A DNA stretch of 64,000 nucleotides from Massalongia carnosa (lineage: Eukaryota), in the NCBI GenBank assembly GCA_965645245.1, contig OZ287067.1, forward strand, positions 1,860,001 to 1,924,000. Reading direction: 5' to 3'. How positions within the stretch are numbered: the first letter of the stretch is position 1; every line of letters starts with the position of its first letter. Position numbers and translations under genes: made by a program. Shown here piece by piece: positions 3,244 through 63,847 of this stretch. The notes under the pieces are model-generated. The model saw only the letters and a program-made list of their open reading frames with translations. It was not told where the DNA came from and did not search any database.

Positions 3244-3252
3244 TCTTTTCCC
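3214..3252 (-). promoter_or_regulatory. Probable -1 ribosomal frameshift signal (gag-pol)
   Basis: Slippery heptamer G GGA AAA (3252-3246) is followed by hairpin ACCTCCA-CCG...CGG-A-TGGAGGT (3240-3214). Pol is in the -1 frame relative to gag. Confidence 0.75.
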
Positions 3253-4481: not shown

Positions 4482-4697
4482 CACTGTAGGGGAGGCTTCC
4501 TTCGGTTCTTCTAGGTTCGTTTTCTGGGTTTGGTTCGGTTCGGTTCGGTTCGGTTCGGTGCCAACGCAGTGGCGGTCTCTGGTTCTTCTGGTTTCGTTTC
4601 GGTTCGTCGTTTTGGTTCAGGTTCGGTTTCTTTTCAGTGTCTTCGTGGTTCAGGTGAGTTCTTTTATATCCCTCACGAAGGATAGCGAAGTTAAATG

Positions 4698-6910: not shown

Positions 6911-9900
6911 TCACTCCAGGCCCAATGCATTCCTAATTGCAATGAACTTGTCCTTGGATAAGGCCTTGGTAAGACCATCTGCTACTTGATCCTCAGTGGG
7001 GACGTAGCGAAATTCCACCGTTTTGTCCTCTATTTTCTCCCGTTGGTAATGCCATTGAATGTCGATATGCTTACTCCGGGCATGGGCCTGGGGATTCTTG
7101 GCCAAAGCAACTGCTCCTTGATTGTCGCAGTGAATGATGACGGCTCCAAAAGAAAACGAGGTGGGGAGACAAGCTAGGGCGATGTTGGCACTATGAGTCA
7201 TTTGCTGCATGGAGTAGGTACCTGGGGCTTCTGGAGGGTTGATTTGGTCCAGAAGGCTAGATAGCCACACAGCTTCCTTGGTGGTTTGTGTCTGGCCCAT
7301 GTACTCAGCCTCACAGGAGGACAGTGCTACCGTTGGTTGACGTTTTGAAGACCAACTAATGGCACCACTGCCGACGTTGAAGACATATCCAGAAGTGGAT
7401 CTCCGGGTGTCGTGATCTCCGGCCCAGTCTGCACCCGTGTACCCGTTTAAAGGCATCAAGGGACCTTTAAATGTTAGCTGTAAGGTCAGCGTACCTTGGA
7501 TGTACCTAAAAATGCGCTTAACGGCCTTCCAGTGCGTCTCAGTTGGATTTGAGGAATAACGGCTGACCACCGAGACAGCGTAGGCAAGGTCTGGCCTAGT
7601 CCCAAGCATGGCGTACATTAGGGATCCCACTGCGGACTGATACCGCAGGCGTGAGTCCTCTGTAGCTTGGTAGCCTTCTGGTGCTGCCTCAAGGCGTCCT
7701 TCCACGGGGCTGGGCAACTGGATTCGTCTCCCACATACCGTGGTCACGGAGCACCTTCTCCAGGTATGCTTGTTGGCTCAAGCGCAGGATTCGGTTGGGG
7801 CGGTCCCGAGTGATGGAGATTCCCAGATAATAGCTGATGGGTCCAAGGTCGACCATTTGAAAACGTTCGCTGAGGGCCTGTTTGATGCATCGAATTTCTG
7901 ACGGGGAGGAGCCAGTGATCTTTAGATCGTCCACGTAAATAGAGACGATGACCCTTTCCTTTGCAAATATGCTGAAGTCGGCGTTGATCATGTGAAAGCC
8001 TAAGGACTTCAGGAAGATAGTCAAAGTCTCGTACCAAATTCGTGGGGACTGCTTGAGGCCGTAGAGTGCTTTGTTTAGCTTGCACACTCGTTTGGTTCCG
8101 TCCTCGAAGCCTTCTGGCTGCTCCACGTAGATGTCTTCTTCAACGCAGCCATAGAGGAAAGCCGTTTTGACGTCCATGGCGTGAATCTCCCAGTTGTTGG
8201 CGGCGGCGATTGCGAACAGGGCCCTATAGCTCATTGGCTTAACCACGGAGGCGAACGTTTCGTTGAAGTGGATGCCCTCTCGTTGCTCAAAGCCTCTGAC
8301 CACCCATCGTGCCTTGTGCCGGAGAACCTCACCCATGGCTCCACGTTTCAGGCGGTAGACCCATTTGGCACGGAGCGCTCGTCGGTTTGGAGGGATAAAC
8401 ACCAGCTTGTAGCTATTATTGGCGTTAACTGAGTCGATCTCGTCCTGCATGCCCTTTCTCCAGTCCCGGTGATCTCGGCACCGTACGGCCTGCTTGTAGG
8501 TTTTCGGCTCGTAGGGCTCTATGCTTGCGGCGTGGGCGAGGAGAGCGAGCATGGCCAGGGGGTCGGGGGAGCATTCTCATAGCTCTGGATACCTAGCAAG
8601 CACCTCCGATTGGACTCTTTGCCGGGTAGGCTTTGGAGGATGAGGAGGTGGTGTAGGCATGGGTGATAGGACTTCGTCGGTCGGTACTTCAATAGTGTCT
8701 AGGAATTCGAGAGCGGCGGCCTCATCAGATGGGGAGGTCTTAAGCCTTTTTGTACGGGGAGCGTCGTCTTCAATTTCGATGATTTGAGGCGGCGGGGGCG
8801 GGGCGGGGGAAGGGGGATCTGAAGGGGCCTGAGGCAGCGACGCGGGAAGGTTGTCTATCCATTTGACATTGGAGAACCGCATCACTACTCCCTTGGGCGT
8901 GATCATTCGATAAATATGATCGCCTTCGTAACCAACTAATCTGCACTTGATGGCGAGATCCTGGAATTTCTTCCGACCGGTATTAGGCTTTCTCACTTGT
9001 GCGTAGCCGGTTTGCCCTACAATGCGTAAATGTCCTAGCTTGGGGGGACTGCCTGTGTGAGATTCGTAAGGGGTGATGTTTCTTCCTGCCGTGGGTTGTC
9101 GATTTCGCAGGTAATTGGCTGTTAGTACCAATTCGGCCCACCACTTTTCATCTAGCCCCGCGTCCACTCGCATTGTGCTAGCCATCTTGTGCAACGTTTT
9201 ACCCAGGCGCTCTGCTTCGCCGTTTTGCTCCGGGTTTCTTGGCACAGTCGGCTCCCACCCGATGCCGTTTTCGAGTCGGAACTTGTCAAATTCAACGGAG
9301 TTGTACTCACCCCCGTTGTCCGATCTCAAACGTTTGATGCATTTGTCTCCGTACTCGTTTTGTTTTTTGTAGTTGAGGAAAGCTTGAAACACCCCGTCCT
9401 TGGAGCGGAGCAGAGACACGTGAGACCGTCTGTCGAAGTCACAGTGAAAGGTGACCAAGTATTTGGCGCCGTTGGCTGCTTCTTTGAAGGAGCCCTGAGC
9501 GTCGCTGTGGATGAGGTCCAGTGGGTGCTTACCTGGCTCCATGGGGGCCTTATGAGGTTCCGCTGTGATTTGGGCAACGGCGCAGGGCCGCAGGAGTCTT
9601 CGGGAGGCGGCTTGCTGAGGTCCATGCCTTGCGACATGCTGGCGAGCTTGACCACGTTTTGCTCTCCTAAGTGGCCGAGACGGGCATGCCACATCTTCAA
9701 TGCCTCACTGTTGACAGCAGCCAGGGCGAGGGCGGATTGGGGGACGTTGAACAAATCTAAAATGTACAGGTTATTTTCTTGACGACGTGCCATGATGCCG
9801 TAGCTGCCGATCTCGATTCCCTGAGGCACAATTTGCATGAGGCAGCCTTCTCGTTGCAGCTGACCTTGGGAGATGAGGTTGAGGCCTCCTTCGGGGACAT

Positions 9901-10100
9901 ACAGGACGTTGTAAAGGGGGAAGGTGCGGCATTTTCCTTGACCGTCCACACAGGAGAGGGAGACTGTACCGGGTACCCTTCATGATCCGAGAGCTTGGGG
10001 ATCTTCTCGAGGATGGATAGGGAAGTGGAGCCGGAGACTTTGTCAATCATCACGGGCAGCGAGATGATGCTTGCTTTGCTTTGGGGGTACTTCTCTTGGG
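6911..10100 (-). pseudogene. Copia polyprotein remnant (protease tail, GAG-pre-integrase, integrase, RT, RNase H); frameshifted, most of gag deleted
   Basis: WHARLGH, LRSDNGGEY, PEQNGEAER, KARWVVRGFEQ, LYGLKQSPR, YVDD, DWAGD...RRSTSGY and RSKHIDI are spread over four overlapping ORFs. Confidence 0.92.
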
Positions 10101-10312
10101 CGATCTAACTGTCAGGCCAAAAAGGTCACAGTCGCTTGGGGCTTCTAGGTCCGATTCAGATTCAGACTGGCCTGGGGTGACTGGAGGAGTTCGATATTTA
10201 GGAATCTTGGGTTACGAAATCCTTGTCTTGATCTGAGTCCTCTAACAGTGACGCTATGATAGCAGCCTCTATCGATTGGGTTGTTCGGGGGAAGTACCGC
10301 TCGAGCTTGATG

Positions 10313-10550
10313 AGCTTTGGCCTTGATTGTGCCTTGAATAGCTTTGGCTTTGATTGTGCCTTGAATAGCTTTGGCTTTGGTTGTGCCTTGAATAAATTTT
10401 GCTTTGGTTGTGCCTTGAATAGATTTGGCTTTGGTTATGTCTTGAATAGCTTTGGCTTTGGTTGTGCCTTGAATAGCTTTGGCTTTGGTTATGCCTTGAA
10501 TAGATTTGGCTTTGGTTATGCCTTGAATACTTTTGGCTTTGGTTGTGCCT
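10313..10550. repeat. 27-bp minisatellite, about 9 copies, inside Copia-1
   Basis: Unit TGCCTTGAATAGCTTTGGCTTTGGTTG with period 27 (e.g. 10331, 10358). Confidence 0.95.
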
Positions 10551-11629
10551 TTTTCGAGGCCATATTCGGCAGTCATATGTCTGCCTTGCGCAGCAGCAGC
10601 TCGAATAGGGGGCCAATCAAAATTTGGTGGCTGGGAGATTGCTCTCGCGGCCCGCGCAAACAAAATTAAAGCGGTGGCCAGGAGATTGAATTTCTCAACT
10701 GAACCACGCGTACTTCGTGTCTTTTTGGTGTTTCGTACGTAGTTAACACGTAGTTGGCATATGTGTTCCGTGTTGAACTCGTGAAATTCGGTGGCAGGGA
10801 GATTGAAAATATGTAATTAGCCTAAAGCAAAACGAAAAAAGTAAGGGATTGCCCACGGTTTGGCTTGACTTAGGGCTTCGCTTGCAGGAAAATGCTACAT
10901 GTGACACCCATGTAGTGGCAATTTGACCACCAAGGTTTGAGTTCAATCTCCGACGTCCGAAGGCATGACTGAGAGAATTCCATTAGTATTAACTACAGTA
11001 GAAAAAGGGGAAGCTGGGCAGTCGATGGGTTTGCTTAGCCATTTGAAGGTCAACTTGATTACTTAGAGATGTCTCGGGTAAGGGTAGAGATGAAAGTTGA
11101 CAGGTATGAATTGGATTTTCAAAAGTAATAAGCAAACACGTCGAAGATGCCCTGCAACCCGGGCTCATAACCTATCAAAAGCACATAGGTGAACGAAGCA
11201 TAGGTAGTAGATTGCTTGATTCTCTACCTAGGTGGGCGAAGCCTTCTATATACAGTTGAGGTGCCCTAATCTTCTAAGCTAGTGATTTAGCTCCCGCAGC
11301 TTACTCGGAGCTAGCCTATTAGGCTCCTTCACTAGCCCTGCATTTACATAGAGTCACGTGATCGAGTGCAGGTAGTGCTGCCAGCCAACTGACTAATCGG
11401 CTTTCGACAGTTGTTTGTTTTTTTGGATCGAGGAACGGTAGTCCAATTTCCGGAATTGACAGTCGCTTTTCCGAGCATTTCGCTCCATGTTCTAGCTGTG
11501 TCATTGACCTGCGGCCCCGGGACCCCGGCGGTTTCGCTCCGAATTGCTGGGTTGACGTTTTTAGTCAAATTCGAATTTCCATTTGAATTTCCATTCGAAT
11601 TTGTCTATATAGGTCGCACCGGTTGTCTA

Positions 11630-13479: not shown

Positions 13480-15621
13480 CCCTTCGTCTGGCAATTTGGC
13501 AGCTACCTTAAATAGGCTTAGTGAGATACCGTAGGGCTGAGTCGCGAACTTCTAAACATTCTCCCCTTTTTTTGTAAATAAGAAGGTAAACATCAATTGA
13601 AAATCATTAAAACATCTACAATTTCTTTAGAATAATCATGAGAGGCATTGAGATAGAAGTTCCTGACCAATCGGACGCTTTGCCCCCCTCAATTCTGAAA
13701 GAACAGGCCAAAAAGAATAAACCCAGCGTACAAAGCATAATTGACTCTATGCCCCCTCCGTCATCAAATTATTGCCCAATTTCGATCCCATTTCGAAAAC
13801 CACAGCCGGACGAGACGTTGCGCTTGATAAATCAGACTCCTTTCAGTTTATTCTGCCTCTTTTGTAGCTTTGAAATGCTTGAAATCATAGCTAAAAACAC
13901 CAATATTAAAGCGAAAAAGAAGTATACCCTAAACGACATCAAGAGACGTCAATGGCATGATACCTCTTCTTCTGAAGTAGGAGCTTTTCTGGGAATTCTG
14001 TTATATATGGGGTATACACTGATGCCACGTCTTACTGACTATTGGAACACATCTCCTAAATTTGCCATACATGACATGGTGATTTAAGCCATGAGTCTTC
14101 GAAGATGGGAGCAACTCAAGCGATTTTTGAAGATATCCAACCCCGACGAAGATGAGATCATTGATACTCGAGGCCCTGATTGGTGGAAAAAGCTGGAACC
14201 ATTGGCCACAGACTTTCGAAAAGCATCAAAGAAATACTGGATTCCTGGAAGTCATGTGTCAGTTGACGAGCAATTGATTTTATTCAGGGGTAGGAGCTGC
14301 CATACTATGCAAATAACCACCAAGGCGGCTGGTGTAGGCTTCAAAATCTATAGTTTATGTCAGGAAAATTATCTTTTTGACTTCTTATTTACCTACAAGG
14401 TGAGTAGAAAAGGCCTCAATTTGCATCGTACTAATTGCAAGACAGGTGTCCAAAATCAGTAAGTTAAAAACGCCTGGACAATTGAAATCTCCGACAACCA
14501 AATGGGATTTGTCTCCTTCCTCCCTAGTCGTCATTCAACTGGCTCGAAGTTTACCGTCTGATGAAGGCTTGAAATACGTCATCTTTCTGGACAACATCTT
14601 CACAAATACGAAGCTATTCAAAGCTCTGAAAACAATTGGAATTGGTGCCTGTGGGACGGCTAAATCAGGATGCGGTTTTCCTGTTGATCTGCCACGTCTG
14701 AGGGTTGCAGCCACCAAGAATAAGGACTGGGGAAAGAAGGCACTAATGACGGTACCTGCAAATAAAAATAATAAATCAAACATTGATGACGGGGACATTC
14801 TGTGTATAGCATGGGTGGATTTAAACACCGTGCAATTCATGACCACGGTTCATACAATTGAGGATTTGAAGACTTCTTTCTACAAGAATTCCCGTCGACG
14901 TCATAGAATTCCTGCAAATTCCAGAGTCATCGTTGATGATGAAGAAGAAAAGCTTCTATTTCCCATGCCCATCGTGGAATATAACCAGCACATGGGCGGG
15001 TCAGATGGGAATGCTCAGCAAAGAGCATATTATTCACCTCAAAGATCTAATCGTCGCTACTGGTGGTCAATTTTCATCTTTCTTCTGGATGCAGCCGTTC
15101 TAAATGCCTTCAAATTGTGGAGAATTCTGTATCCGAATTCAACACTCAGCCATTTGGACTTTCAAAAAGAAATAGTAAATGCCCTAATATCCAATCAAGC
15201 AGATGCCCTACGGAAACGTCCGACAGATGTCATAGTTACTACTAATCAAGACGTTAATAAAGACGTCGAGTCAACTTGCAAATGGGAGCATTTGAATAAG
15301 AAGGACTATTGTTTGGCCTGCAAAAGGCAAGTGCCAAGACTCAAACGACGCCGACCACTTGCGGAAATTGATGAAAATTGCACCAAAAGACGACGTGCAA
15401 GTCAGACCAGATGGCAATGTAAGAGCTGTGGACAATGTTGCAAAAAGGAGGCATGTTGGGAAATTTCACATAGATCATGAGGGGTGATTGAGGTGTTGTA
15501 CCAATTATCGTTGAAAAGGGAAAATCTGATTGGCCAGATTAAAGTTAATAGTCATTACCCGGAGACGGCGCGTGTAAAATTGAATATTACCTAAATGGCT
15601 GCCAAATTGCCAGACGAAGGG
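13480..15621 (+). mobile_element. piggyBac-type DNA transposon
   Basis: Perfect 24-bp TIR CCCTTCGTCTGGCAATTTGGCAGC at both ends. Absent from the paralogous site at ~6199. Confidence 0.93.
13638..15480 (+). pseudogene. piggyBac (DDE_Tnp_1_7-type) transposase with one intron (14400-14445) and one in-frame stop (14085-14087)
   Basis: VSVDEQLILFRGR, GFKIYSLC, IFLDNIFT, YNQHMGGSD and a C-terminal Cys-rich domain. The GTGAGT...ACTAAT...CAG intron joins the frames. Confidence 0.9.
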
Positions 15622-26699: not shown

Positions 26700-29600
26700 G
26701 AAGGCCGAAAGATATTCGGCATGGGCAAGCTATACGAAGGGCATTCTGCTCAAGAATAACTGCGAAGGAGCCATTCTAGAGAATTAATCAAAAATCACCG
26801 CTGAAACCATCAAGGAAGGTTTAATACAAGCAGGCTTCGACGCCAAAGGTCTTTCTGTCAGCATCTTGGTAAAAGAGCTGCGTGACGAGAAGAATAGACA
26901 GAAGGCCGAGATGACCAAGGCTATAGGAATCATTCACGGATTAGTTGCGGAGTGCCATTACAGCCTCATCGACAACAAGAATGCGGCAGAAATGTGGAAA
27001 ATCCTGAAGGATAGATTCCAAGATATAGCACCAATGAGCATCAGCGACATCATTCTGAAGGTTAGTTCTAAGAAGATGACTGACTTCGAGACCACCAGCC
27101 TATACTGTGCAGAGTACGAGAGCGCTTTAAACAAAATTAAAGGAATGCTGGACGACAAGGCCAAAGTGGATGTGCATACCGTGGAGTTCATGCTTCAGGG
27201 AATGATGCTGGTTAACACCACAGACGTCTATTCCCCATTGATAGCCCAACTTCGACGAGATTGGACACACGAAACCAAACCTGTCGGAAGCAATGAAGAC
27301 CATTGTTGCTTATTCTGTCAACATGAAAAACACCAAGGCACTTCATATCAGCACACCTGACTCGAGAGGTCGAGCCCCATTTGGGACCTGCACCTTCTCT
27401 GAATGTGTCGAGAGAAAGAACACTCGTCATTGGCCAGCTAACTGTTGGCAGAAGTTTCCACAGCTAAAAAGACATAGAAGTTCGCTCGAATCCGGAAGAG
27501 CAAAGAAACAAAAGACTACCTCGTCAGAAACGAAGGCGGACTTACCTCATACATCACCCAACATTCCAACGGTGAGTAGTTGACTCACACAGGTCATGGC
27601 CACAAGACTGCAAAAAGTCATGACCAGGACGAATCTGAACAAGAACTCGTGGTTATTGGACAGCGCTGCAGATATGCACGTATGCAACCACAGATACTCG
27701 TTTACTGACTATACGAGCTACTCTACTAATCTAGCAGGGTCAACGTCCACAGGAACGTCGCCAGGAAGAGGAACTATTCATAAGACATTGATCTTGGAGG
27801 ACGGCTTACCCTCGTCGATACTGATTCTTAACAATGTTCTCTACATTCCTCAATATCCGGTGAACCTTGTGAGTTTGGGAATGCTGAATCAACACGATAT
27901 CTTCTATGACAATTCAAACTGGAGACTGTTCATGGGATCCACTGCAAAAGTCATAGGGCACGTACCGAGAGTTGACAACAACTTCATGCTACAGACCGTT
28001 GACACCCCAGATATGAGGATGCATTTGAGCATAGTAGACGAGGACACCTATCAAGGACTGGACGTCACTATCTGTCAAATATCTGTCAAATCAAAACTCA
28101 CTACATGGCATGCAAGGCTTGGTCATCTCAACATTCCGACGTGTCGAAAATATTTGAAAACGCTAGACATAACGTATGATGACGATATCAACCAAGGTTG
28201 GTTTTGCCATGCATGCGAAATGGGAAAAGCCAAAAAGATATACAACCGAACACAGCAAGAGAGGGCCACAGAGCTCTTTCAAAAGATAAACTCTGACCTA
28301 GTGGGACCAATCAAGCCAGCAGGTCTTCTTGAAGAACTTTACTTCTTCACTTTCACCTGTGATGCTAGCAGATACACTCATGTCTATACCGGACACAAGA
28401 AGAGTGGATGGTTTGATCACTTGTTGACGTACTACAGCATGGCCCAAAACAAAATCCGGAAGGCTAAACCCATAAGCAGTTTTCGCACTGACTTCGGTAC
28501 GGAGCTTCGCAGTCACAAGTCAGACGTTTGGTTCCTGGAACAAGGCATAACGTTTGAACCAGCTGCTCCATACTTTCAAGAGGAAAACGGAGTCGCGGAA
28601 CGAATGGGCAGAACCATCATGGACATGACAAGATGCAGTGTCATTGCCGGAGACATTCCCGACTACTTGTGGGCAGAAGTAGTTCTCGCCATGGTTCACA
28701 CCAAGAACGTCAGACCAACCAACGCCTTGGCAGGTAAAACCCCGTATGAGATCTTCGAGAAGAAGTCACCTAAGCTGGATCACCTGAGAATTCTCGGATC
28801 CACAGTCTATGCGTTGATTCACGAAGAAGAGCGAAAAGGACTAAACAGCAAGGCTGCTAATTTTTCTCTGAGGGCTCAGAAAGGAATCCTGTGTAGATAT
28901 GACGGAAGCACCATCTATCGCGTCTTTATGGAAAAAGACTACAAGGTCATCAGGGTCAAGGACTTACGGATTCGTGAAGACGCCACATTCAAAGATGGGA
29001 CCGATCTACCCACGTACGATTCCATAATGATTCAAAACGAGAAAGATACCACACTCGAAATCAGTCCCACTCCTTCAAAAGACCAACCAGAGTTGAATTC
29101 CAAGATAAGTGACATCCCCAAACGTGGACGAGGTAGACCCAGAAAACACGCCTATGTCGCACAAGTGCTGAGTCTCCTGTCAAATGAGGCATTAAGTGAA
29201 CCAGAACACATCCCCACACTGGCAGATAGAGACGAAGAAGACCTACTTATACTTCTGGCCAAAGAACTGGAAATAGAGGGAGCAGCATACCTGAACGACT
29301 ACGATGCGTTCATTCAGTCAGACACAGCTGAGCCACAAACATATCATCAAGCAATGAACTCCAAATACGCAAACGAATGGAGTCTGGCAATGGATGAGGA
29401 GATCAAAAGTCTGCTGGAGAACAACACCTGGGATACATTATCCACCGAGTCCATGGAACCCGGACATATAATCTTGAGTGGCAAATGGGTATTCAAGCTG
29501 AAACGGGACGTAAATGGAAAGATCGTTCGCTTTAAAGCTAGATGGGTTGTCAAAGGATATCTACAACAATACGGAGTAGATTCGATCAAACCTTTGCATC

Positions 29601-30895
29601 TGTGGTCAAACCAATGGCTTTTCGCTTGCTATTCGCGTTAGCTGCCCATCACGATCTGAATATCGAGCAACTAGATATAGTGACAGCTTTTCTGAACGGT
29701 CTCATCGATCAACTCATCTATGTCCACATGCCGAAAGGATATGACACAGCTGGCATGGTGTGCAGGCTGAATAAAGCCCTGTACGGTTGGAAACAGTCTC
29801 CGCGTCTCTGGTATGAACGACTATCAACTTTTCTATTGAGCAAATTAGGACTGGAGAAACTCCACGCAGATCATAGCATCTTCGTCACACCTCAAGGGAT
29901 GAAAGGACCCATTGTTACCTCTTTCGTTGACGATTTGAACATCATAGGCCCAAAGGGTTCCCCGATGATCACCGAAGTCAAGAAACAGCTCAAGCTAGCT
30001 TTCAAGATGGTAGACATGGGACCAATCAGCTACTATCTAGGCCTCAAAGTCGAACGAGATCGAGTCAACAAAACCATAAAGCTATCTCAACCAGCCTATA
30101 TCGAGAAGGTATTGGAAAGATTCCATATGCAAACCGCAAAGACAACAAACACTCCCATGCGAGAAGGCTGTCTCTTCATCAATGAATCTCAGGCCTCCGA
30201 CAAGAACATAAAGTAAATATCAAACCATGGTTGGATCCATCATGTTCGCAATGATAGAAACCAGGCCAGACATAGCTTTCGCAACGTCCGTAGTCAGTCG
30301 CTATGCAAAGAATCCAGGCAAAACACATATGGAAGCGGCCAAACACATTCTCAGATACCTTAGCGGTACCAAGAATAGAGGCATCACCTTCGGTGGGGGA
30401 GATTTATTTATACAAGGTTATTCTGACTCTGACTGGGCCGGAGACAAAGAGCAGCGAAAATCCACCTCGGGTTATGTGTTCATGCTGAACAATGGACCAA
30501 TAAGCTGGTGTTCCAAAAGACAAACGACCGTCGCATTGTCATCAACCGAAGCAGAGTATATGGCACTCACCTTAGCAGCAAAGGAGGCTACATGGCTACG
30601 TTTACTGATGACTGAACTCGGATTGATGACTTCTGATGACGGATCCCCGACAATAAACGTGTTAAGAGGAGAAGGCACAATTGCATTGAAAGGCGACAAC
30701 CAAAGCGCCATAGCACTGGCCAATAATCCCGTATTACACTCCAGGACCAAGCATATCGACATTCAGCACCACTTCATACGAAACGAGGTGCTAGAAGGAA
30801 GAATCGACCTCACCTATGTTCTGACCGAAGACATGTTTGCAGATAGACTGACAAAACCCCTTACGCACGTCAAGTTCTACTCCTTTATCAGATAG
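26700..30895 (+). pseudogene. Copia-2 gag-pol polyprotein with stops and frameshifts
   Basis: AEMWKILKDRF (gag), WLLDSAADMHVC (protease), WHARLGH, FRTDFGTE, EENGVAER, KARWVVKGY, FVDD, YSDSDWAGD and RTKHIDI. The start is approximate. Confidence 0.94.
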
Positions 30896-53087: not shown

Positions 53088-53106
53088 AAGCCCCTTCGGG
53101 TTAGTC
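53088..53106 (+). repeat. 19-bp hairpin direct repeat, left copy
   Basis: AAGCCCCTTCGGGTTAGTC is identical to 63850-63868. Confidence 0.85.
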
Positions 53107-53680: not shown

Positions 53681-56491
53681 CTATCTACGAAGCAGATCCT
53701 CTCCAGCGTCAATACGCTTAGAGATCTGATGTCCAGAGAGCCCCAAACTGTCAACTTCCCGCGCAATATCCCACGGATCCCTCCCCTGCTCATTCGCCTT
53801 CCCCTGAAGGTACCGACGGATCCGTCTCTTGACGTAGAACCGCTGCCTCAGGGCAGGAGTGTACCTCCACTTAGCCCCAAAGAGGCGGTCCAACTCGTCG
53901 AGAGATGCACGCTGGACCCCCTCCACCAACGTCCCCAACGCGAATTCCTCCAACACCGCCTCCGCCGAGGTCACGCCGCCGAGAATGGGCTCCGCCGGGC
54001 AGCCAGGAGGACGTTGAGGCGGCCCCTCTTGGGGGAGGGAGCCACAGGGCGCAGAGACCGTAGACGTCTCTCCGGGGACGGAAGTGAGGACGACAGAAGG
54101 TGTAGGAAGGAGAGAAGCGACTGCGTCGACGTACGAGGACGCCGACGCAGCAGGCTCTTCACCAACGGAGTGCGCCGCCGTCGCAAGAGCAGTCGCCTGC
54201 CCTCGCCAAGAAGCCTCGTCCAGCAGCCAGTCCCTCCGAACAGCCTCCACAGGAACCGTCAGAAAGGATCGAAGCAGCGTCGAGACCGTGGCCTGCAATT
54301 GTGAGAGCTGCGAACCCAGGACTCGAGCTATCTCCTGGGCATTTGCCGCCGGCAGCGCACTCAAGGTGGTCGTCAGCTGGCTCTGCCCGGAGAGCAACCT
54401 CTCCACAGCGTTGAGCGTGCGATCTTGCTTAATTGCAACACCGCTGACCTTGTTACTGACGCCATCAACGGAGTCAGTAACAAGAGGCAGCACGCCGTGG
54501 ATGGCCACGTGCAAAGGTTCCTTTTCTACAGCCTCCAACTCCCGTATCTTCGCCGCGAACGCAGGCCAAAGGGGATCTCTGAAGACTTGGTGTCTCCAGA
54601 GCGAAAGCTCAGGAAACTGAGGCTGTAGAAGCGCCGCGTCTTGCAGGAAGACACAACGCAGCCGCAGCAACATCTCCAGAACCTTCTTCCCTGCCTTATC
54701 CGCATCAGGAAAAAGACCGCCTTTGTACGCCGCCAGAGCGTCATCCACCCAAGGCCACACCTGCCGCTGCAGGGCCAGATCCGGTGAGTGTCCTCTTCTC
54801 AAAAAGTAACTCCCGGGGGAGTTGCCAAAGCCGGCGGCGCGACGCATGTAGACACGCGGCAGGCGAGTGAGGTAGTTAGTGGCCCAGACGCCACGTTCCC
54901 ATCCGCCTGCTCTCATGATCTGTAGTAGTTGATATAAGGGTAACGCTAGTAAGTATAAGGGGCCATGAATCGTAGAGTACTTACCTGGTCCGCGGGGACT
55001 TCCCACATGTCGGCCAGCCGTGACGAGGACTGCCGCATGGTGTGGACCGTCTTGGAGCTGTCGACGCCGACAGCATCCAAAGCCGGCTTGATCCATCGGG
55101 CCTGTGTTTTGTCGGAGATCTCCTCCTTAGATCGCGCCAGGCTCCCGGAGATGACCTTCCTTCGTGAAATACCACTAAGATCGATCCCGGAAGTCCGGCC
55201 GCTTCTCCAGGAGGAGGTCCTAGCACAAGACGAGCCAGTGGGCGAGGGCGCCGAGAGGACAAAGGACGACATCTCTGCTCCGCAAAGCACCATAGTAATG
55301 CTGGCGGCGCGAGTTGCCCCCGTCCGCCAGAGGAATGCTCTTGCCCTAGCCAATTCGAAGGATCAACGCAAGGCATTCGGACCCCTCGTTAGGGAGGTCG
55401 TAGGCGCAGAGGTCAGATAGCTCAGCCCTCCGCGTTGACTCCCCCCGCAGCATCATCGAATGCATTAGGAGGAAGTCGAGGCTAGTCCGCAGGAGGTGCC
55501 ACTCGCCGCCCGCCACGCCCTCCTCCCCCAAAACCTTGCCCCCGGCGAGCAGCATTGCCGAAAATTGAGCGGCCTGCTCAATCGTGTAGCCGTCGGTGAG
55601 GCCGTGGATCGCGCGATCCTCGAACGAGGCCCGTTTGAAAGCGCTCCAATCGATGCGTAAGCGCGTCATCAGGGCTTTGGTGGCTTTCCCTCTGGGATGG
55701 GGCACCACCAAATTCTTTTCGAGATGCTGGCCATCGAAGAGGGCGCAGAGGGCAGAGACGTAGCCCGATTCCACGCTATCGGGCGCCAGGGGCCGGGATA
55801 AAGGGTCGTCGGCTTGCTGCAAGACGAGTCAGTAAGCTACAAAAAGATGATTCTATCCCTGAATTCGAGTTCAGGGGCCGACTCACCGTCTCAACGAGCT
55901 CCTCGCCGTCGGAGAATTCCTCGAATTTTTCCACCTCCTCCAGCTCCTCTCCCTCTACCGCTGGCGAGGCTTCCACCGCCTCCATCGCCTTCCCCTTCCC
56001 CCTCTTCAACGCGCGGCGCTTAGCCTGCCGTTGGCGATCCTGATCCCGCCGCCTGGCCTGCGCTGCTGCGCCTGTGAACTTGGGACGTGGGACGAAGCGC
56101 AGGCGGAGGACGACCTCTTCGAGGAAGAGGAGCATCTTCCGCTCCCACACAAGGACGCCGTCAAGAAAATTGCGCCGTCGGCACCACTTCTGTAGGATGT
56201 TAGCGTAGGCCCAAAGTTGCAGGGCATACCTATCGTAGTCACCTCCCACAGATGCCAGCACCTGCGGTACGCCTTAAGGGTGTTGGCCCTCCGATCCTCC
56301 TCCCGCATCCCGCGGACGCGCCTCATGGTGGCGGCCATGGCGGCCTCGTTGTTGCCGTGGGTGGCATAGGCCTGAGACTCACGCTTGACGGCCTCGACAT
56401 CAACGTAAGCCTCAGGAGGAGGCCAAGAAAGAGGCGCCGCCGTCTCCGGATCTGCGACAGCGGGGCCTGCAGCGGAGGGGCCCGGGTCCAT
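53681..56491 (-). pseudogene. CryptonF-type tyrosine recombinase (Ndc10 domain II-like, probable C-terminal GCR1_C-like domain); three introns (56242-56190, 55886-55817, 54984-54920), premature stops and a frameshift
   Basis: NTLKAY, SGYVSALCAL, EDRA...DGYT, LRTSLDFLLMHSMMLRGES (catalytic R), CPLGALA, SKTVHTMR (HxxR), RAGGW and NYL (catalytic Y), MRRAAGF, VFLQDAALL and ELDRLFGAKWR. TAG at 55348-55346 and a frame change near 55160. Confidence 0.9.
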
Positions 56492-57068
56492 CGTGCGGCC
56501 GCCAAAGAGGGTATCCGTGGTATGTAGAACGCTCGTTGACCAGCAAGTCGCTCGCGGCGCAAAACGGGGACAGGCAGGCTTTTTGCAGTTCGACTGAATG
56601 GGTCGAGGAGAGAAAATCGTGGTATGGAGCTTGGTCACGGGCGATATTGTCCATACAGCGTGACGATTTTGCAGGGTCACGCCTATAAGTCGGTTTATAC
56701 CCCAAAGTCACAGGCGATAAGTCCACTTTTCGAAGGACCGCCAAGCCAGCATTTTTTACGCTAAATCTCAACCCCGCGGCCCCGAAAAAAAAATCGGCCT
56801 CGGATAAGCGATCTTGAGGGCTAGCTATGTGAAAATTCGCCGAAGTTGCCGTGAACTATAGATTTCGGAATTTTTGATTAATGGAAGTTCCTTCCTTCGG
56901 ATCCCCAAGTGGGGGAGGATGTACGAGCATGAAAAGGGGTGTACGACCACTGAAAGGATGGGAGGAATTAGTTATGGATTACGGGATTCTTTATACAAAT
57001 AATACATTAGTTGGACTTTTTAAGACCAGTTATTAGACCAGCTTGCCATGATATTATCCATTCGTCAT

Positions 57069-57146
57069 GATCGGTCCTCCTCCTTCTACACCATCGGTCC
57101 TCCTCCTTCTACACCATTGGTCCTCCTTCTACACCATCGGTCCTCA
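57069..57146. repeat. Short tandem repeat, ~20-23-bp unit CATCGGTCCTCCTCCTTCTACAC, about 3.5 copies
   Basis: Directly visible. Confidence 0.9.
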
Positions 57147-57229
57147 CCACGGAGACGCCAAAGGCCTCACCGTGGGGCGACCGTCAAACATATAGATTTG
57201 CTCCTATTTCTTCGCATCAAAACAATGCT

Positions 57230-58860
57230 AATTTAACGCGTTCACACGCGTCGCAGACGTACGTACGGAAGAGGATACGAAGGCCAACCGCCGGGGGGTA
57301 GAATGCGCGCGTCCCTGCACCATGCTTCTAAGGGTTCAAGTGCCTTCATGCAGTCATCAGCTGGAAGAAGATGTGGACCAAAGGAGCCGCATCATCCCCC
57401 ACCCGGGCACAGTCGACACGCGTTCTAGCTCCTGAGAGTTCAAGTCTCCCCATGCAGTCATCAGCTGGGATCAACAGAACGCGTAAAGGCACCGGGGCGA
57501 ATGCTGTCACCTCAAGAAAACTCCATCTCGGAGCAGAATAACAATATCCCATTTAATAGGCCTGGCCTGTTAAATAAAATCGAGGAAAACACAGAGTCAC
57601 AAAACACATAGTCATCAATCACACGTTGTACAAAGCACACAGTCACAAACATACAGTCACAAACACACAGTCAAAAACACACAGTCACAAAACACACAGT
57701 CACAAAAAACACAGTCACAAATCAATAACACGTCCCTGTGAAGGGGGTTCTGCGGGGGCTCGTTAAGACAGATCTGCACCCCGTTAATATCGGAGTACAT
57801 ATTTTTAGAGGTTCAAGTCCTTTCTAGCAGTCATCAGCTGAAAATAATGTATTTGGACACGGGCATGGTGTGGATTTGACACGGGTAGACCTCGATGGAT
57901 CACAAAACGAATGAAAAGAGTTCAGCGGAACTTCGTTAATATTGTTCTCGAAGACCTCGTTAATAAGATTTTCATAGACCTCGTTAACAACGTTCGGTCA
58001 TACTCTTAAAGGTTCAAGTCCTTTCATGCAGTCATCGGCTGAGAGCTAAAGACGTACGACACGGGTCAGCTATGTCTATCACACGGGTCTCCTTCGTCTA
58101 CAACACGGAGCCCTCCGGCTGAAAGAAATAAAACATATAGACACATAGTGTAGGGTTACACCCTACACGATACAAGGGATTTGGGTTATGAAAACCATCC
58201 GATTGATGGCTACCGTGAGCAACACGGCCCGAACCGGAGTCGTACCGGGGATGGTGGAGGCAACCTAGTCATCAAATAGGAAACCCTTGGGACAAGAAGA
58301 GGGCAATATACGAGGAACCCGTTAATTGATAACAGTCTAGGCCCTGAGCTAATAGACGAATTTCAAACGAGCACCCCTCCGAGTTGTCCTCGACTCGTTT
58401 TGGTTAGTAGGGACGGAAAATCGATACTATACTGCCTGGTCAGGAGCATAGTGGTCGAAATCCCTGCGAGACATGGTCGGTTCATAAACGGGAGACCTTT
58501 ATGAATAACGCGAAGTGGGCGTAAAAAACCCGTGAGGCGTGGTATGCAATGGCGGCCACCGTACGGAGACCGTCTGCATAGCCCGAGAGGACAGTATGCG
58601 CATGTCGGTATATATAGAGCAGGGAATGTCTATCTCGCTCGTAACGAGACCCCGTCGGTTCGCCGGCGCATGGGCTACGGCTAGACTCGCCCTTGATATA
58701 TGCTTAAGGAGTAAACTGGGTTTGACCTGGGCGAAAGGGACGTCGTTCACCCCAATCGTAGAATTCATCAATAGTCTTGGGCCGTAAAACGCACCAGTGA
58801 GATGAACGAAAACTGGGATAGAGACTTCACGAAGGAGATGTCAACTCTATTTTATCATTC
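57230..58860 (+). ncRNA. Putative large modular structured RNA of unknown family (boundaries approximate)
   Basis: Four covarying T-loop three-way junctions, two long rods rich in G-U pairs on the + strand, many GNRA/UUCG-capped hairpins, and no credible ORF. Folded by eye only; transcription not shown. Confidence 0.6.
57586..57723. repeat. AC-rich ~14-bp tandem repeat (AAAACACACAGTCAC), about 9 degenerate copies
   Basis: Directly visible. Confidence 0.9.
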
Positions 58861-58862
58861 TT

Positions 58863-61523
58863 AGCCCTTCTGGAACGAGCGTTGCGCTGTCGCTGTGGCG
58901 GAGACTCGGCGTCGAAGACGCGAGTGGACGAGGTGGAAGACAGAGGCAACGTGGCGCAGGTATCTCAAATCGGCGGATGAAAAGAAGAAGATCATCACCA
59001 AGGAGAAGAAGCTCGACTTCAGAAGAACCTTAGCAGAGATGACGTCTGCGTCCGAAGGCATATGGCGTCTTGCCCGATGGGCTCGTACGCGCAGTCACTT
59101 ACCGCGAGACATTCCCAAGGTGCCCGATCTGACGCACACGCTTGCGGACGGCACAGCAGTCACTGCGTCCACATTCGACGAAAAGACGTCTCTTCTCTCT
59201 GACATGTTCTTCCCCAATGCAACCGCGGCAGACCTCAGCGACACGACGACGTATCGCTACCCTCCCGCTGTCGCAGAAACGGAGTCTCTTATCACAGGCG
59301 AGGAGATAGAGGCAGCAATCAAGCGTTGTAAGCCGGACTCTGCTCCGGGCCCCGACGGAATACCGAATAGAATACTCAAGCTTCTGATCAAGTCGATACT
59401 GCCCACGTTGGTCCTTCTATTTCGCGCCTGCGCAGAGCAGGGGTATCACCCACTCTGCTTTCGCGAGGCTCACACTATTGCAATCAAGAAGCCGAACAAG
59501 CCGAACTACACTCTCGCTAAGGCCTATAGACCTATCGCGCTTCTGAATACGCTTGGGAAGGTCTTGGAATCGATCATAGCTAAACGCATCGCCGCTATTG
59601 CGGAGACCCACAATCTGCTTCCTGAGTCTCAGATGGGAGGATGACGACAAAGATCCTGTGAAACGGCGCTTGAACTCCTCACCGAACAGATACACACGGT
59701 GTGGAACATGGGGTCAGACAAAGTGGCCACGCTTTTGAGCATTGATGTGGCCGGTGCCTTTGATCACGTCTCGGCGGAGAGAATGCTGCACAATCTGCGC
59801 AAGAGAAAAATTCCTGAATGGATCGTAGCATGGGTCGGCAGCTTTTTACAGCAAAGAAGGTCCACACTGACAATCGGCGGTCAGACGTCTTCGATGCGCC
59901 TTGTTCATGCCGGTATACCGCAGGGGTCGCCAGTGTCGCCCATTCTCTACATTTTTTACAACGCAGATATTTTGGAGGAGCTAGAGCGATCTCGACTCAA
60001 AGTCACCGCGTTGGGGTTTATTGACGACATCAATATACTGGCATACGGCACCTCGACTGCGAGTAATTGTCGAGCTTTAGAACGTGCTCACGAGATGTGC
60101 GAGCTGTGGGCTAGACGTCATGGAGCGCACTTCGCGCCTGCTAAATACGAGCTCCTACATCTCGCCAGAAATGATCGTCGCTTCGACATGACGGCTGCCG
60201 TGTCCATAGGAGGCGTGGACAAGACGCCTTCGCCGTCGGTGCGAGTGCTTGGAATTCAGATCGACTCCAAGCTTAAATGGGGCCCTCATCTAAAGTTCAT
60301 ACAGGGCAAAATGGCTACACAGACCTTGGCATTATCCAGGCTTACGGCTTCTACGTGGGGAGCGTGCTTTACGAAGGCGAGACACGTTTATAGCGCCGTC
60401 GTGCAACCGGCGATTACCTTCGGCTCTACCGTCTGGCATTCGCCATATGGCCGTCCCGACGGCACGCAGAGGATCGACAAACAGCTCGGTGACATACAGC
60501 GAGAGTGTCTGCGAGTGATAAGCGGAGGATTTCGCGCTACTCCGCAAATCATCATCGAAGCCGAAACTCACGTTTCTCCAATTCAGCTGCATCTAGCTCA
60601 CTTGCAGGCGAAGGCACGACGACGTCTTAAAGAACATGAACACGATCAACGCATCTCCGCTTTCTGTGAGAAGATCAAGCGCAAGCTGACTGCCTCGCGT
60701 GGTAGACGACGGCGCGCCTTCAACGCTACGCCGGCTCAGCGTAAGCGTGACTGGTATACGAGGCAGATTGCTCGAGTCCGGCCTGCTGACATGATAGAGG
60801 ACTCTCCGACGGACAGAGGGCTAGCCAAGATCTTCAACAATCAGTGGAAGCAGACCTGGAGCGCGTATCAGGCGGCTCATCAGCGTCATCCCTGCGCTGC
60901 GCTTACTGAGGGTCTTTCGATAAAGAGACTGGGATTACATAAGAACTTCTGCAAATCCGAAAGCAGCCTCATCATTCAAATGCGTACTGAGCGTATTGGC
61001 TTGGCGGATTATCTCTTCTCTCGTCGAGTTCCCACGTTCGCTTCGCCGGCGTGTAGCTGTGGATGGGCACGCCAGACGCTCAAGCATGTGCTACTCAGCT
61101 GCCCCAGGTTTGTTAACGGCCGAAGCAACATGTGCAGAGACGCCGGAACGACGGATTATCGCCGCCTTCTGACCACCGAAAAGGGCTTACGAGCCTCCGC
61201 TCGCTGGCTTATGCGGACTAATCTACTGACACAGTTTTCGCTAGCTGTAGAGTGTCTTTCTTCCTCCCCCTAACTGTCGCGTAGTGATAGTCACAAACTC
61301 TAGTTATAACAGAGGCAGAAGGTAGTCTCTTGATACGCATGTCGTAGACGTGGCGCTGGCGAAACGTAGCATTCGCGAAGTGAGGTCGAGCGATCACGTG
61401 TAGGTATACAGATGAAGGTTTTTTCCCCTCGATGAGGGTTTTCCTTCTTTGAAACTTTGATAGCTTTTCTCGCATGGGTCGGCTGTAGCTGATGTCACAA
61501 CGAGTATGAATTTAATAATAATA
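58863..61523 (+). mobile_element. 5'-truncated Tad-like LINE (non-LTR retrotransposon) with (TAA)n tail
   Basis: ORF2 begins mid-gene (PFWNERC...). It contains APGPDGIPN, YRPIALLNTLGK, GIPQGSPVSP, FIDD and the C-terminal CSCG...HVLLSC. One in-frame TGA at 59642-59644; ORF ends at 61273. Tail TAATAATAATA. Confidence 0.93.
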
Positions 61524-63802
61524 CAGTCAAACCTTCCTATAACGATAGGGTTTGTCCACGCCGGCCAATCGTTATAGCCAGATTATCGTTATAGCCAGAA
61601 TATATTATTTATAAGTTAAACATAACGGTTATGTGTGATGATGAGATTCATAGACCTAAGAATCTATATAGCATGAAAATAAGTCTGAATAGACTGTTGC
61701 TGCAACTCCTGTGTGCCTCTGCCTCTGATATCCCGTCGATAACGTGTCAAACACCGCAAAACCTCGCTGTTACCGTTGTCTTGTTGCTCCTCGTAGAGAC
61801 AGTCTATTCAAAGCAGTAATAGCTTCTGCACTGCTCACTTTTGCCATCATCTCTTGCTCCTCATCTGTCTCATGGTCTCGTTCAATCAAAGGGTGACTAT
61901 AACTGTCCAGAATCTGTTCAAATATCTCCTCCTCGTTGTCTTCCACCACCTCATCCACGAGATCCAAGAAATGATCTATCTTCATCGCCTCTGTGATGTG
62001 ATTTTTGTCTTGTAGAGTCCGTATTGTAGCGTCCATCTGCTTGATCATCTCTCGCTGCTTGACATCATCTGCATCAGACTGCTCCTTCCACCCCAATTGT
62101 ATAGCCACACTTTCCGAAACAGGTCCGTACTTTGGACCCAAAACTTTGGATTTCAACCAGCAATTGGCAATTGTAGTAGAAGAAACGTCTTCTTGCCAAG
62201 CAGCTACACTCCATCGAAGAGCTTGTAGAATATGAATTGACTTTAACGGATCGCGATCCAAATCATATTCCGAACAGATGTAATTCAACCAATGTCGACG
62301 ATAATGAGCTTTAAAGGCCTTGATGATGCCTTGATCAAGAGGTTGACAGACGCTTGTGGCGTTGGCAGGTAAGAAAAGTACCTAAAAAGTTGATTAATCG
62401 ACGCTCTTGAAAATACACATCAGTCTAACGTACCTTGACGTTGTTCAGAGCAGTTTCATCTGCTTCTAAAAGCTTCAATCCGGCGTGATGGGATGAAAAC
62501 CCATCTACTAGAAGCACTACATTGCGATCTGCGGTCAAAGCGTTGAACCATAGAAGATACTCTTTGAATATCTTGCCAGTCATCCATGCTTTTTTGTTAT
62601 GACGCCAAGTCATCGGTAGGTTTTCTATCTTGACGCCAGATCGAGCAAAACAGCGAGGCTTTGCTGCCGTTCCAATAAACCAGGGATCCATCTTGTGACC
62701 CACGACATTACAACAAAGATTGATGGTGATTCTAGACTTATTCAACTTAACACCAGCTGAATCAGACACTGCCAAGGTACGATCCGGCGTCATTTTCCAG
62801 TATAGAGCTGATTCGTCCATGTTATAGATGTCTTCATTAGGATACGACTTTAGTTCTTCCCTGAGATCCACGAGTTCAAGCTCCACTGTTGCTTGATCTA
62901 CCGCAGCAGCTTCGCCATGACGAACTACTCTATGAATCTTATACCGCTTCTTGAAGCCGTCCAACCAGCCTGTTGGGAATTTGGGCTCCTCAACGCCTTG
63001 ATATTGCGGCATTCGAGCCCAGAATCTTTTGGCCATGGCCTTCAATATATCACCTGTTATGGTGGCATGCTTGAGCTCCTGTTTCTGCTGCCATTCGTAC
63101 AACGCCATCTCCAGATCTTCCCAATTTGCTGGCTGTCTCTTCTTTGATTGCGGATGAATGAGTCTTGAATCATCCAGATGATCATACTGATGAGACAAAC
63201 AGACAGAAACCGTGGATTGAGACAGCTTACGACCAAACTGATTTAGAAACCAGGCTATTAAGGAGTTGGAATTGGGCTTGGGATGATCCGCCTGATTATA
63301 GTGAGCTCGCAAGGCCTTTCTCTCAGCGTCAGTAATAGCTCGTCGTCGCTTGACGCAGGCGGAGGAGCTAATAGGTCTATTCAAGATGGACGACATGATG
63401 TTGTGAATACTCGGCGAATATCTTGGAAGTAGGAGGCTAGGTTATCAAATGGTAATACAACAAACGGGAACGACTTGGCTAATCAGCTTAACCAGAGCTT
63501 GATTTGTGACTGCTTATACTACTACCTCTAGTAAAGAGTGATTCTATGAAAATATAGCAGAATAGGCTCCCTATATATATACCTATCAAAAAACTACACT
63601 GCATTATTTAAGTAGGAAGTTCGGTCGAGGTGCAACCTGGCTTCTATGTATAACGATACCCTACAAAAATTTTGAGATTTACTAACGATATCGTAATAGG
63701 GAGATTATCGTTATTTTGCACCTAAAATTGCCGGATTTCTCCAACCAATCGTTGTGGAGCGATTATCGTTATAACCAAAATCGTTATAGGAAGGTTTGAC
63801 TG
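61524..63802 (-). mobile_element. pogo/Tc5 (Tigger/CENP-B-like) DNA transposon
   Basis: Perfect 23-bp TIR CAGTCAAACCTTCCTATAACGAT and TA TSD. Inserted in the LINE TAA tail. Confidence 0.96.
61664..63396 (-). pseudogene. DDE_1 transposase with Abp1/CENP-B-like HTH domains; intron 62433-62382; probable C-terminal frameshift near 61800
   Basis: GWLDGFKKRY, HGEA, IYNMDESALYW, KKAWMT, LLVDGFSSH and FLPANATSVCQPLDQGII. Confidence 0.88.
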
Positions 63803-63847
63803 TAATACAATAGAACTGCCTTAGTACTGCGTCGCTCTACGAGCTGT

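Follow-up and report, generated by a model that had tools for sequence, protein, structure and literature searches.

The stretch analysed here, 64,000 nucleotides of Massalongia carnosa contig OZ287067.1 (the window), is transposon-rich fungal nuclear DNA. On its + strand, positions 57070–58867 hold a WEIRD-like non-coding leader of ~1.8 kb, delimited by contig break points and conservation, which runs directly into a long interspersed nuclear element (LINE). An earlier reading of the DNA, made without database searches (the sequence-only reading), had pointed out four copies of a T-loop three-way-junction motif in this region, and all four lie inside the leader. The copies do not stand alone, a point missed in that reading, but recur as units within the leader of a chimeric LINE. 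Comparison with relatives suggests that they are iterated structural units of a sense-strand RNA, the ~1.8-kb leader of a chimeric retroelement of the kind lacking long terminal repeats. The identity of the copies as units of a non-coding leader in a chimeric leader–LINE retroelement is the part of this interpretation in which we have the highest confidence.

Direct reading of the sequence bears out the coordinates, stems and both mismatches (one G-G, one A-C) that had been given for the four copies. Each copy consists of a closing stem, P1, and two hairpins, P2 and P3. In copy 1 (57325–57367, + strand), P1 is CTTC/GAAG, P2 is AAGGG/GCCTT with a G·G closing mismatch, and P3 is CAG/CTG (covariance-model score 59.2 bits). 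The mismatch is private to this copy; position 57342 is C in every matching contig of four sequencing runs, which restores the G-C pair. Copy 2 (57417–57484, core 57430–57470, + strand; 61.0 bits) has TCC/GGA as P1 and GAGAG/CTCCC, with one A·C, as P2, and is enclosed by an outer 9-bp helix in which ACGCGTTCT (57417–57425) pairs with AGAACGCGT (57476–57484). The cores of copy 3 (57801–57845) and copy 4 (58003–58045) are built from ATTTT/AAAAT and AGAGG/CCTTT, and from CTCT/AGAG and AAAGG/CCTTT, respectively; P1 of copy 3 reaches 57796–57851 past one bulged A, and the P3 loop of copy 4 reads TCATCGG. The heptamer TTCAAGT alone occurs in the window at the level of chance (11 matches, 10.86 expected), while the second block, GCAGTCATCRGCTG, is enriched, with 6 matches at ≤2 mismatches against 0.71 expected, the four exact ones being the copies. 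A repeat search of the window groups the four copies into a single 44-nt family (D2), and the surrounding 2.4 kb is otherwise unique within the window.

Relatives were collected by scanning metagenome contigs with TTCAAGTNNNNNCWWGCAGTCATCRGCTG, which gave 12 loci (L001–L012); the same motif pattern has no match in 596 Gb of prokaryote genomes and none in viral contigs. With up to five mismatches allowed, the loci and the window yield 25 distinct copies that align without a gap. The consensus unit is a three-way junction composed of a variable P1, a 5-bp P2 with the loop UUCAAGU, a joining segment J23 of sequence CWWG, and a P3 of CAG/CUG with the loop UCAUCAG. Seventeen columns are invariant across the 25 copies, i.e., the U of J12, G20 (the last G of the P2 5′ strand), the P2 loop, and most of P3 with its loop. 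The covariance model made from these copies finds only the four known ones in the 64 kb, and 33 matches in window and loci together. A ACGCGTTCT-type outer helix, as in copy 2, also surrounds one L002 copy.

For the pairing counts, the structure of the sequence-only reading was extended to 10 P1 pairs, which gives 18 pairs and 450 cells. In total, 82.9% of the cells are paired, compared with 70.5% in shuffles and 39–54% with slid partners, and both sides have changed in 15 of the 18 pairs. By helix, pairing amounts to 96.0% in P2, 91.0% in the inner 4 bp of P1 and 98.7% in P3; the values for P2 and inner P1 were reached by none of 5000 shuffles. All nine pairs of P2 and inner P1 are complete in 14 of 25 copies when each copy is combined with its own 3′ strands, versus 50 of 600 combinations with the strands of other copies. 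This pairing is maintained across 20 different P2 stems and 19 different inner P1 stems, and even P3 shows an exchange of C-G for G-C in two L011 copies. RNAalifold recovers the same junction unaided. Within P2 and inner P1 there are 23 G·U cells and 4 A·C cells, an excess that identifies the folded strand as the + strand in the form of RNA, and the orientation of the motif is that of the LINE open reading frame (ORF).

The observation that the loops are nearly invariant while the stems change and yet pair thus holds in homologs from 12 metagenome contigs, which align without gaps and keep the pairings through changes on both sides. Concerning the proposed selection on an RNA module, the covariation, the invariant loops and the G·U bias support selection on the fold, but there is no support for a ribozyme or a true tRNA. 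By the refuting condition set in the sequence-only reading, the alternative of a mere DNA B-box can be rejected, since conservation exceeds GTTCAAGT, the second loop and P3 are just as invariant, and the stems covary. The junction fold is therefore very probably under selection at the level of RNA, as judged from the aligned copies. Folding of the single copies gives z values of +0.51, −2.29, −1.34 and +0.04 on the + strand, and +1.08, −1.99, +0.17 and +0.73 on the − strand, for copies 1 to 4; single-sequence folding gives little support, so the case for the fold is one of comparison, not of energy.

The units are larger than had been described, in that each has an additional closing helix, P0. 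In an alignment of 12 full units (10 from the loci, and window copies 3 and 4), the flanks share the blocks ...CYYGTTAATACTGG... and ...CAACACRGGC..., and RNAalifold pairs CYYGU with ACRGG to form P0. Pairing in this helix reaches 98.3%, the middle pair being C-G in 6 units and U-A in 4, and a U·G pair is kept in 10 of 12. With P0 included, 97.0% of the whole structure is paired, compared with 88.5% in shuffles and 42–56% with slid partners. Most units have their junction mounted on a stalk with one to three closing helices of the CYYGU/ACRGG type. The arm of copy 3 (57759–57885, + strand) has two nested P0 helices, 57759–57763 CTCGT with 57881–57885 ACGGG, and 57780–57784 CCCGT with 57859–57863 ACGGG; the minimum free energy (MFE) structure of 57752–57892 shows the nested helices, with z = −2.06. 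The arm of copy 4 (57932–58109, + strand) has three, which pair 57932–57936 with 58105–58109, 57956–57960 with 58083–58087, and 57980–57984 with 58061–58065, and the outermost, TTCGT/ACGGA, is altered on both sides. Within the leader, CGTTAA is present six times on the + strand and once on the − strand, and ACACGGG four times on the + strand and not at all on the − strand.

The leader itself contains no + strand ORF of more than 83 amino acids and is 67–75% identical to loci L001–L012. Contigs of four sequencing runs (X1, X2, X5 and X6) matched to 56800–59300 continue differently at each break, and the loose ends at 57069/57070 and 58866/58867 therefore mark the leader boundaries. The left break is at 57069/57070 in contigs of X1, X2 and X6, and at 57133, inside the 5′ tandem repeat, in X5; the right break is at 58866/58867 in X2, X5 and X6. 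In X1, 3876 contigs match, with a summed depth, not to be equated with copy number, of 250,000–570,000 for the leader, 16,000–81,000 for the LINE part and 735 for the left flank. A joint in X1 that leads from 57324 to 57998, i.e., from copy 1 to copy 4, indicates that the number of units varies; leaders have 1–5 units of ~116 nt. In X5, a single low-depth contig of 8.2 kb covers the leader (57133–58867), with unrelated sequence on both sides. The organism of that run may have few copies of the leader, or even a solo leader gene.

Downstream of the leader, the LINE (58868–61520, + strand) comprises a post-endonuclease linker, reverse transcriptase (RT), a CCHC motif, a 3′ untranslated region and a TAA-rich tail. 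Its ORF (58865–61273) has an in-frame TGA at 59642–59644, and both ORF pieces have RVT_1. Relatives of this LINE have an N-terminal endonuclease (PF03372/PF14529) that is lacking in the window copy, which is therefore 5′-truncated; among the loci, such endonuclease-bearing relatives matched only L003, L007 and L012. Leader and LINE are joined directly, head-to-tail and in the same orientation. The junction in the window lies in the linker after the endonuclease, at RT residue ~1, and elsewhere the leader joins LINE ORF2 at RT residues ~384 (L007), ~412 (L012) and ~416 (L003). Between lineages, the RT is 47–50% identical. A candidate target-site duplication (TSD), AATAATACATTAG, is found at 56998–57010, 59 nt upstream of the shared 5′ end of the leader; its partner AATAATACAATAG corresponds to 61517–61523 and 63805–63810 after removal of a nested pogo element and one TA. 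The two are AT-rich and agree at 12 of 13 bases.

Among the other features of the leader, the 5′ terminus (57070–57145, + strand) is a tandem repeat of 23-nt units, ATCGGTCCTCCTCCTTCTACACC (family D3); the loose ends in X1 and X2 carry more of these units right at the leader 5′ end, and all lineages start with tandem repeats, the sequence of which differs between lineages. Tandem repeats of 14–15 nt (ACACAGTCACAAA; families D1 and D5) occupy 57586–57742 (+ strand), between the two pairs of units, and show copy-number variants in the contigs of the sequencing runs. The 3′ half has three conserved parts on the + strand. The segment 58145–58291 is 70–75% identical to L001, L003 and L006–L012. For the structured domain 58398–58625, RNAalifold predicts 74 pairs from eight sequences, and in 26 of these both sides have changed. 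The terminal segment 58700–58867 has a covarying hairpin and the constant end ...TTCTTAGCC. This hairpin pairs 58818–58823 ATAGAG with 58845–58850 CTCTAT, and its counterparts are GTAGGG/CCCTAC (L007, L012), GAAAGG/CCTTTC (L003) and GTGAGG/CCTCGC (L002). Comparison thus portrays the 3′ half of the leader as a covarying multi-helix RNA in its own right, worth an RNA family of its own. The end ...TTCTTGGC is found in the window, L002, L003, L007, L009 and L012, and every locus that reaches that far has it. L001/L010 and L009 share a common insertion of ~62 nt, in the order terminal hairpin, insertion, ...TTCTTGGC-type end, ~60 nt before the leader 3′ end. The MluI-box-like sequence ACGCGT is located at 57236, 57246, 57418 and 57479, and is also present in the leaders of L002, L003, L007, L009 and L012. 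Its density is 2.2 per kb in the leader versus 0.11 per kb (20-fold), with the sites upstream of or around units; these may be promoter elements at the DNA level, or simply helix halves as in copy 2.

Searches against known RNA classes place the units outside them. Rfam gives no match at gathering thresholds, and at E up to 10 three weak and unrelated matches in 56500–58900, none of them on any copy and none a tRNA. The absence of a cloverleaf, as stated in the sequence-only reading, agrees with ARAGORN, which at default finds no gene in the window or in 57000–58900. With relaxed settings (-ps80), there is one weak call, confined to the T-arm of copy 3 (one of four copies), and the output of the relaxed and mitochondrial modes is mostly noise. 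The T-arm or B-box geometry described there holds in the alignment; all 25 copies have the loop TTCAAGT and 24 have the closing G-C, copy 1 being the exception. The units have the sequence features of a T-loop, i.e., a 5-bp stem, a G-C closing pair and a 7-nt loop of the form UUCRANY, and UUCAAGU on a G-C-closed 5-bp stem fits the T54–C61 consensus of tRNA. What the units share with the tRNA T-arm is this stem and loop; they differ from tRNA in having no cloverleaf and no D or anticodon arm, and in placing the hairpin on the 5′ strand of P1, whereas that of tRNA is on the 3′ strand. The GGTTCAAGTCC-type sequence in the copies also agrees with the B-box consensus. Inspection by eye of the 12 full units shows no convincing A-box 30–60 nt upstream and no consistent run of four or more T downstream, and the conserved block upstream of the units, GTTAATACTGG, is part of the P0 stalk.

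Three further candidates were considered and rejected. A hammerhead built from CUGAUGA and GAA on the minus strand fails, as CUGAUGA is in a hairpin loop, with neither stem II nor the GAA junction. A pseudoknot between J23 (CUUG) and the P2 loop (CAAG) is contradicted by J23, which varies (CAUG, CUAG, UAUA, CCCG) against a constant loop, and there is no linker. A likeness of P3 to a helix region of human 7SL was judged coincidental.

The closest known architecture is that of MINE from Magnaporthe. According to PMC2104539, MINE consists of a full-length non-coding WEIRD of 1,113 nt joined to the LINE MGL, truncated at 28 sites; 19 MINE chimeras are flanked as wholes by duplications, and are taken to arise when the LINE reverse transcriptase switches templates. 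That paper presents WEIRD as an abundant non-coding RNA of unexplained function, with no solo gene known and no similar sequence in other genomes (PMC2104539). MINE and the window element are alike in having a full-length, multi-copy, non-coding 5′ module with a constant 3′ end and no encoded protein, joined directly and in the same orientation to a LINE that is truncated at many points. They differ in host (Magnaporthe versus a probable lecanoromycete) and in the length of the module (1,113 nt versus ~1.8 kb), and the paper gives no RNA structure for WEIRD (PMC2104539), whereas the leader is structured. By analogy, the window element is of MINE-type architecture. The M. oryzae MINE primer MNR2, taken from PMC3978060, has no match at ≤3 mismatches, which says little across fungal classes. 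The leader ends in ...TTAGCC (58860–58867), and GCC is reported just upstream of template-switch sites in MGL RNA (PMC2104539). This GCC, present in both, might guide the switch as a microhomology, but according to the authors no microhomology was found (PMC2104539). Our literature search, made largely without full texts, returned no description of this motif nor of WEIRD-like RNAs outside Magnaporthe. We regard the element as a MINE-type chimera in which the leader has proved to be a structured RNA, conserved and carrying a T-loop junction in repeated units, a motif apparently not described before.

Other systems offer partial parallels. The 7SL Alu domain in Alu and B1 SINEs (short interspersed nuclear elements), part of an RNA that relies on LINE RT, forms a small three-way junction in which both hairpin loops are conserved, and the units here are likewise small three-way junctions with two conserved loops. 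In U6–L1 chimeric pseudogenes, an abundant structured RNA is the 5′ partner in template-switch chimeras. These chimeras are also named in PMC2104539. Differences from the RNA of the signal recognition particle (SRP) and from U6 are that there is no sequence or Rfam similarity and that the units are repeated 1–5 times in a far longer leader. The 5′ untranslated region of mouse L1 is made of tandem promoter monomers, which act as promoter units at the DNA level. These resemble the ~116-nt units as variable-number repeats in the 5′ region of a LINE-type element, but the units differ by their RNA-level covariation and strand-specific G·U bias.

As a mechanism, we tentatively propose that the units may serve as a multivalent tRNA-elbow-like platform that recruits a conserved host factor to the leader RNA, which is possible but doubtful. 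The platform would bind a highly conserved host factor that recognizes tRNA, e.g., on or near the ribosome, and binding would hold the leader RNA where the LINE ribonucleoprotein assembles. The leader RNA could thus become a favoured template-switch acceptor, which would account for its repeated joining to LINE cDNA and its mobilisation in trans; in fungi, the arrangement would parallel that of the 7SL Alu domain and SRP9/14 in Alu elements. The loops are invariant although the LINE RT is only 47–50% identical, and a conserved host partner would fit this better than a fast-evolving protein of the element. Taken as a whole, the best explanation, which blends the architecture and the RNA-level selection with this far less certain mechanism, is about evenly balanced between right and wrong.

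A number of observations weigh against this interpretation. With respect to the fold, the outer six P1 positions pair in just 58.7% of cells in a fixed register. One side of P2 is purine-rich and the other pyrimidine-rich in the alignment, so that chance pairing already reaches 70–88% in shuffles, and the copies share ancestry, which means that the events counted are not independent. The stems are short (P3 has 3 bp) and single-copy folds are no more stable than shuffles. Among the eight folds (four copies on both strands), only copy 2 has a z of about −2, which its 9-bp outer helix produces on either strand. The MFE structure of the copy 4 arm (57925–58115) shows the junction and part of the ladder at a z of −0.34, which is not significant. 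With respect to the architecture, the LINE fusion is verified for the window and for three of the ~6 loci that extend past the leader; in L002 and L001/L010 the sequence after the leader was matched to no LINE, and in L009 the leader gives way to a zinc-knuckle-like ORF that contains two CX2CX4HX4C patterns and matches no Pfam family. None of the three 3′ continuations in X2, X5 and X6 is present in the window, including its LINE part. As to the mechanism, we purely infer the host binding partner and its connection with the ribosome, and the T-arm sequence, which is also a perfect B-box, may have a role at the DNA level.

The T-arm-like sequence and the repetition of the units can be read in other ways. 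The units could be a binding or packaging site for the LINE's own ORF1p, through its zinc knuckles, or for ORF2p, and would then load the leader RNA straight into the LINE particle with no host factor involved. Such a site would account for the multiplicity of units, for invariant loops on variable stems and for the constant partnership of leader and LINE, and the ORF with two CX2CX4HX4C patterns that follows the leader in L009 would suit it. It is nevertheless an unlikely explanation, given loops that are 100% identical across lineages in which the RT is ~50% divergent, and a covariance model that finds no unit in the LINE part within the window. A slightly smaller chance is given to a purely DNA-level role, in which GGTTCAAGTCC would be an RNA polymerase III (Pol III) B-box that binds TFIIIC, as part of an internal promoter or as a chromatin barrier that keeps the leader promoter active, with pairing inherited from a tRNA-derived ancestor. 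G-TTCAAGT-C fits the B-box/T-arm consensus in 24 of 25 copies, copy number varies as in promoter monomers, and the 20-fold enrichment of ACGCGT in the leader points the same way. Against it stand the invariant second loop and P3, the covariation of P1, P2, P3 and P0 with a G·U bias, and the lack, by eye, of a convincing A-box and of a consistent T-run after the units; the runs of T4–T5 within the leader would also argue against Pol III transcribing 1.8 kb.

The hairpin on its closing stem might alternatively be an RNA processing signal, a tRNA-like junction cut by RNase P, by tRNase Z or by itself to give defined RNA ends, and a template-switch acceptor does require a defined leader 3′ end (58866/58867). 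The units lie 800–1500 nt upstream of that end, however, and retro-copied leaders retain everything 5′ of the units, so that the copied RNA was uncut. The T-arm-like hairpin is moreover on the 5′ side of the junction, not beside the P1 3′ strand as in tRNA, no Rfam ribozyme or tRNA matches, and the minus-strand CUGAUGA lacks the hammerhead arrangement of stem II and GAA, all of which makes a processing signal improbable. Still less credence, very little in our view, belongs to the notion that the leader is a repeated host sequence that is not mobile, into which a site-specific LINE inserts at ...TTCTTGGC. The leader side of the junction is indeed constant and the LINE 5′ ends vary, and the TSD around the whole unit is just an AT-rich candidate with 12 of 13 bases in agreement. 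The leader 5′ end, however, adjoins different flanks in different contigs, and the leader itself must therefore be dispersed; the 19 Magnaporthe chimeras are duplication-flanked as wholes (PMC2104539).

The leader–LINE element is embedded in a nest of transposons. The gene that immediately precedes the leader (53681–56707, − strand; GC-rich at 0.60) is intron-split and encodes NDC10_II and GCR1_C, the domain pair of Crypton-type tyrosine-recombinase transposons. A pogo/Tc5-type DNA transposon (61524–63802, − strand; HTH_ABP1_N, HTH_Tnp_Tc5, DDE_1), with terminal inverted repeats CAGTCAAACCTTCC... and TA duplications, sits inside the TAA-rich tail of the LINE. The hairpin-like repeat AAGCCCCTTCGGGTTA (+ strand) has four copies at 53088, 63850, 63878 and 63938, with 0.02 expected by chance, and these flank the transposon nest at 53.1–63.8 kb as if insertions had split an array. 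Further transposon remains at 1–4616, 6911–10816, 14404–15480 and 27584–30895 include a Gypsy-type gag-pol, Copia-type integrase/RT fragments and a piggyBac-like DDE_Tnp_1_7 ORF. Host genes at 33–52 kb encode a Zn-cluster factor, DnaJ, Bro1/ALIX and Leu1, and the 3-isopropylmalate dehydratase of the window is 79–83% identical to proteins of lichen-forming Lecanoromycetes.

WEIRD/MINE, in which the LINE reverse transcriptase repeatedly joins a non-coding RNA to its own cDNA, has been an unexplained case since 2005–2007 (PMC2104539). The window and 12 metagenome contigs indicate that an RNA of this architecture exists far outside Magnaporthe and is densely structured, and that conservation is highest in a repeated three-way junction with a tRNA T-arm signature. 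Rfam 15 lacks the junction unit and the leader 3′ domain, which would add at least one new RNA family. In its widest form, which we consider unlikely, the leader would be a widely conserved, large and structured WEIRD-type non-coding RNA of filamentous ascomycetes that hijacks the LINE RT. The T-loop junctions would then be tRNA-elbow mimics that dock on the ribosome or another universal tRNA-binding machine, a counterpart of Alu–SRP9/14 that evolved independently, and a portable promoter and an acceptor end for template switching would come from the remaining leader sequence. The unit offers a concrete and mutable element with which to ask how a non-coding RNA comes to be copied by a LINE.

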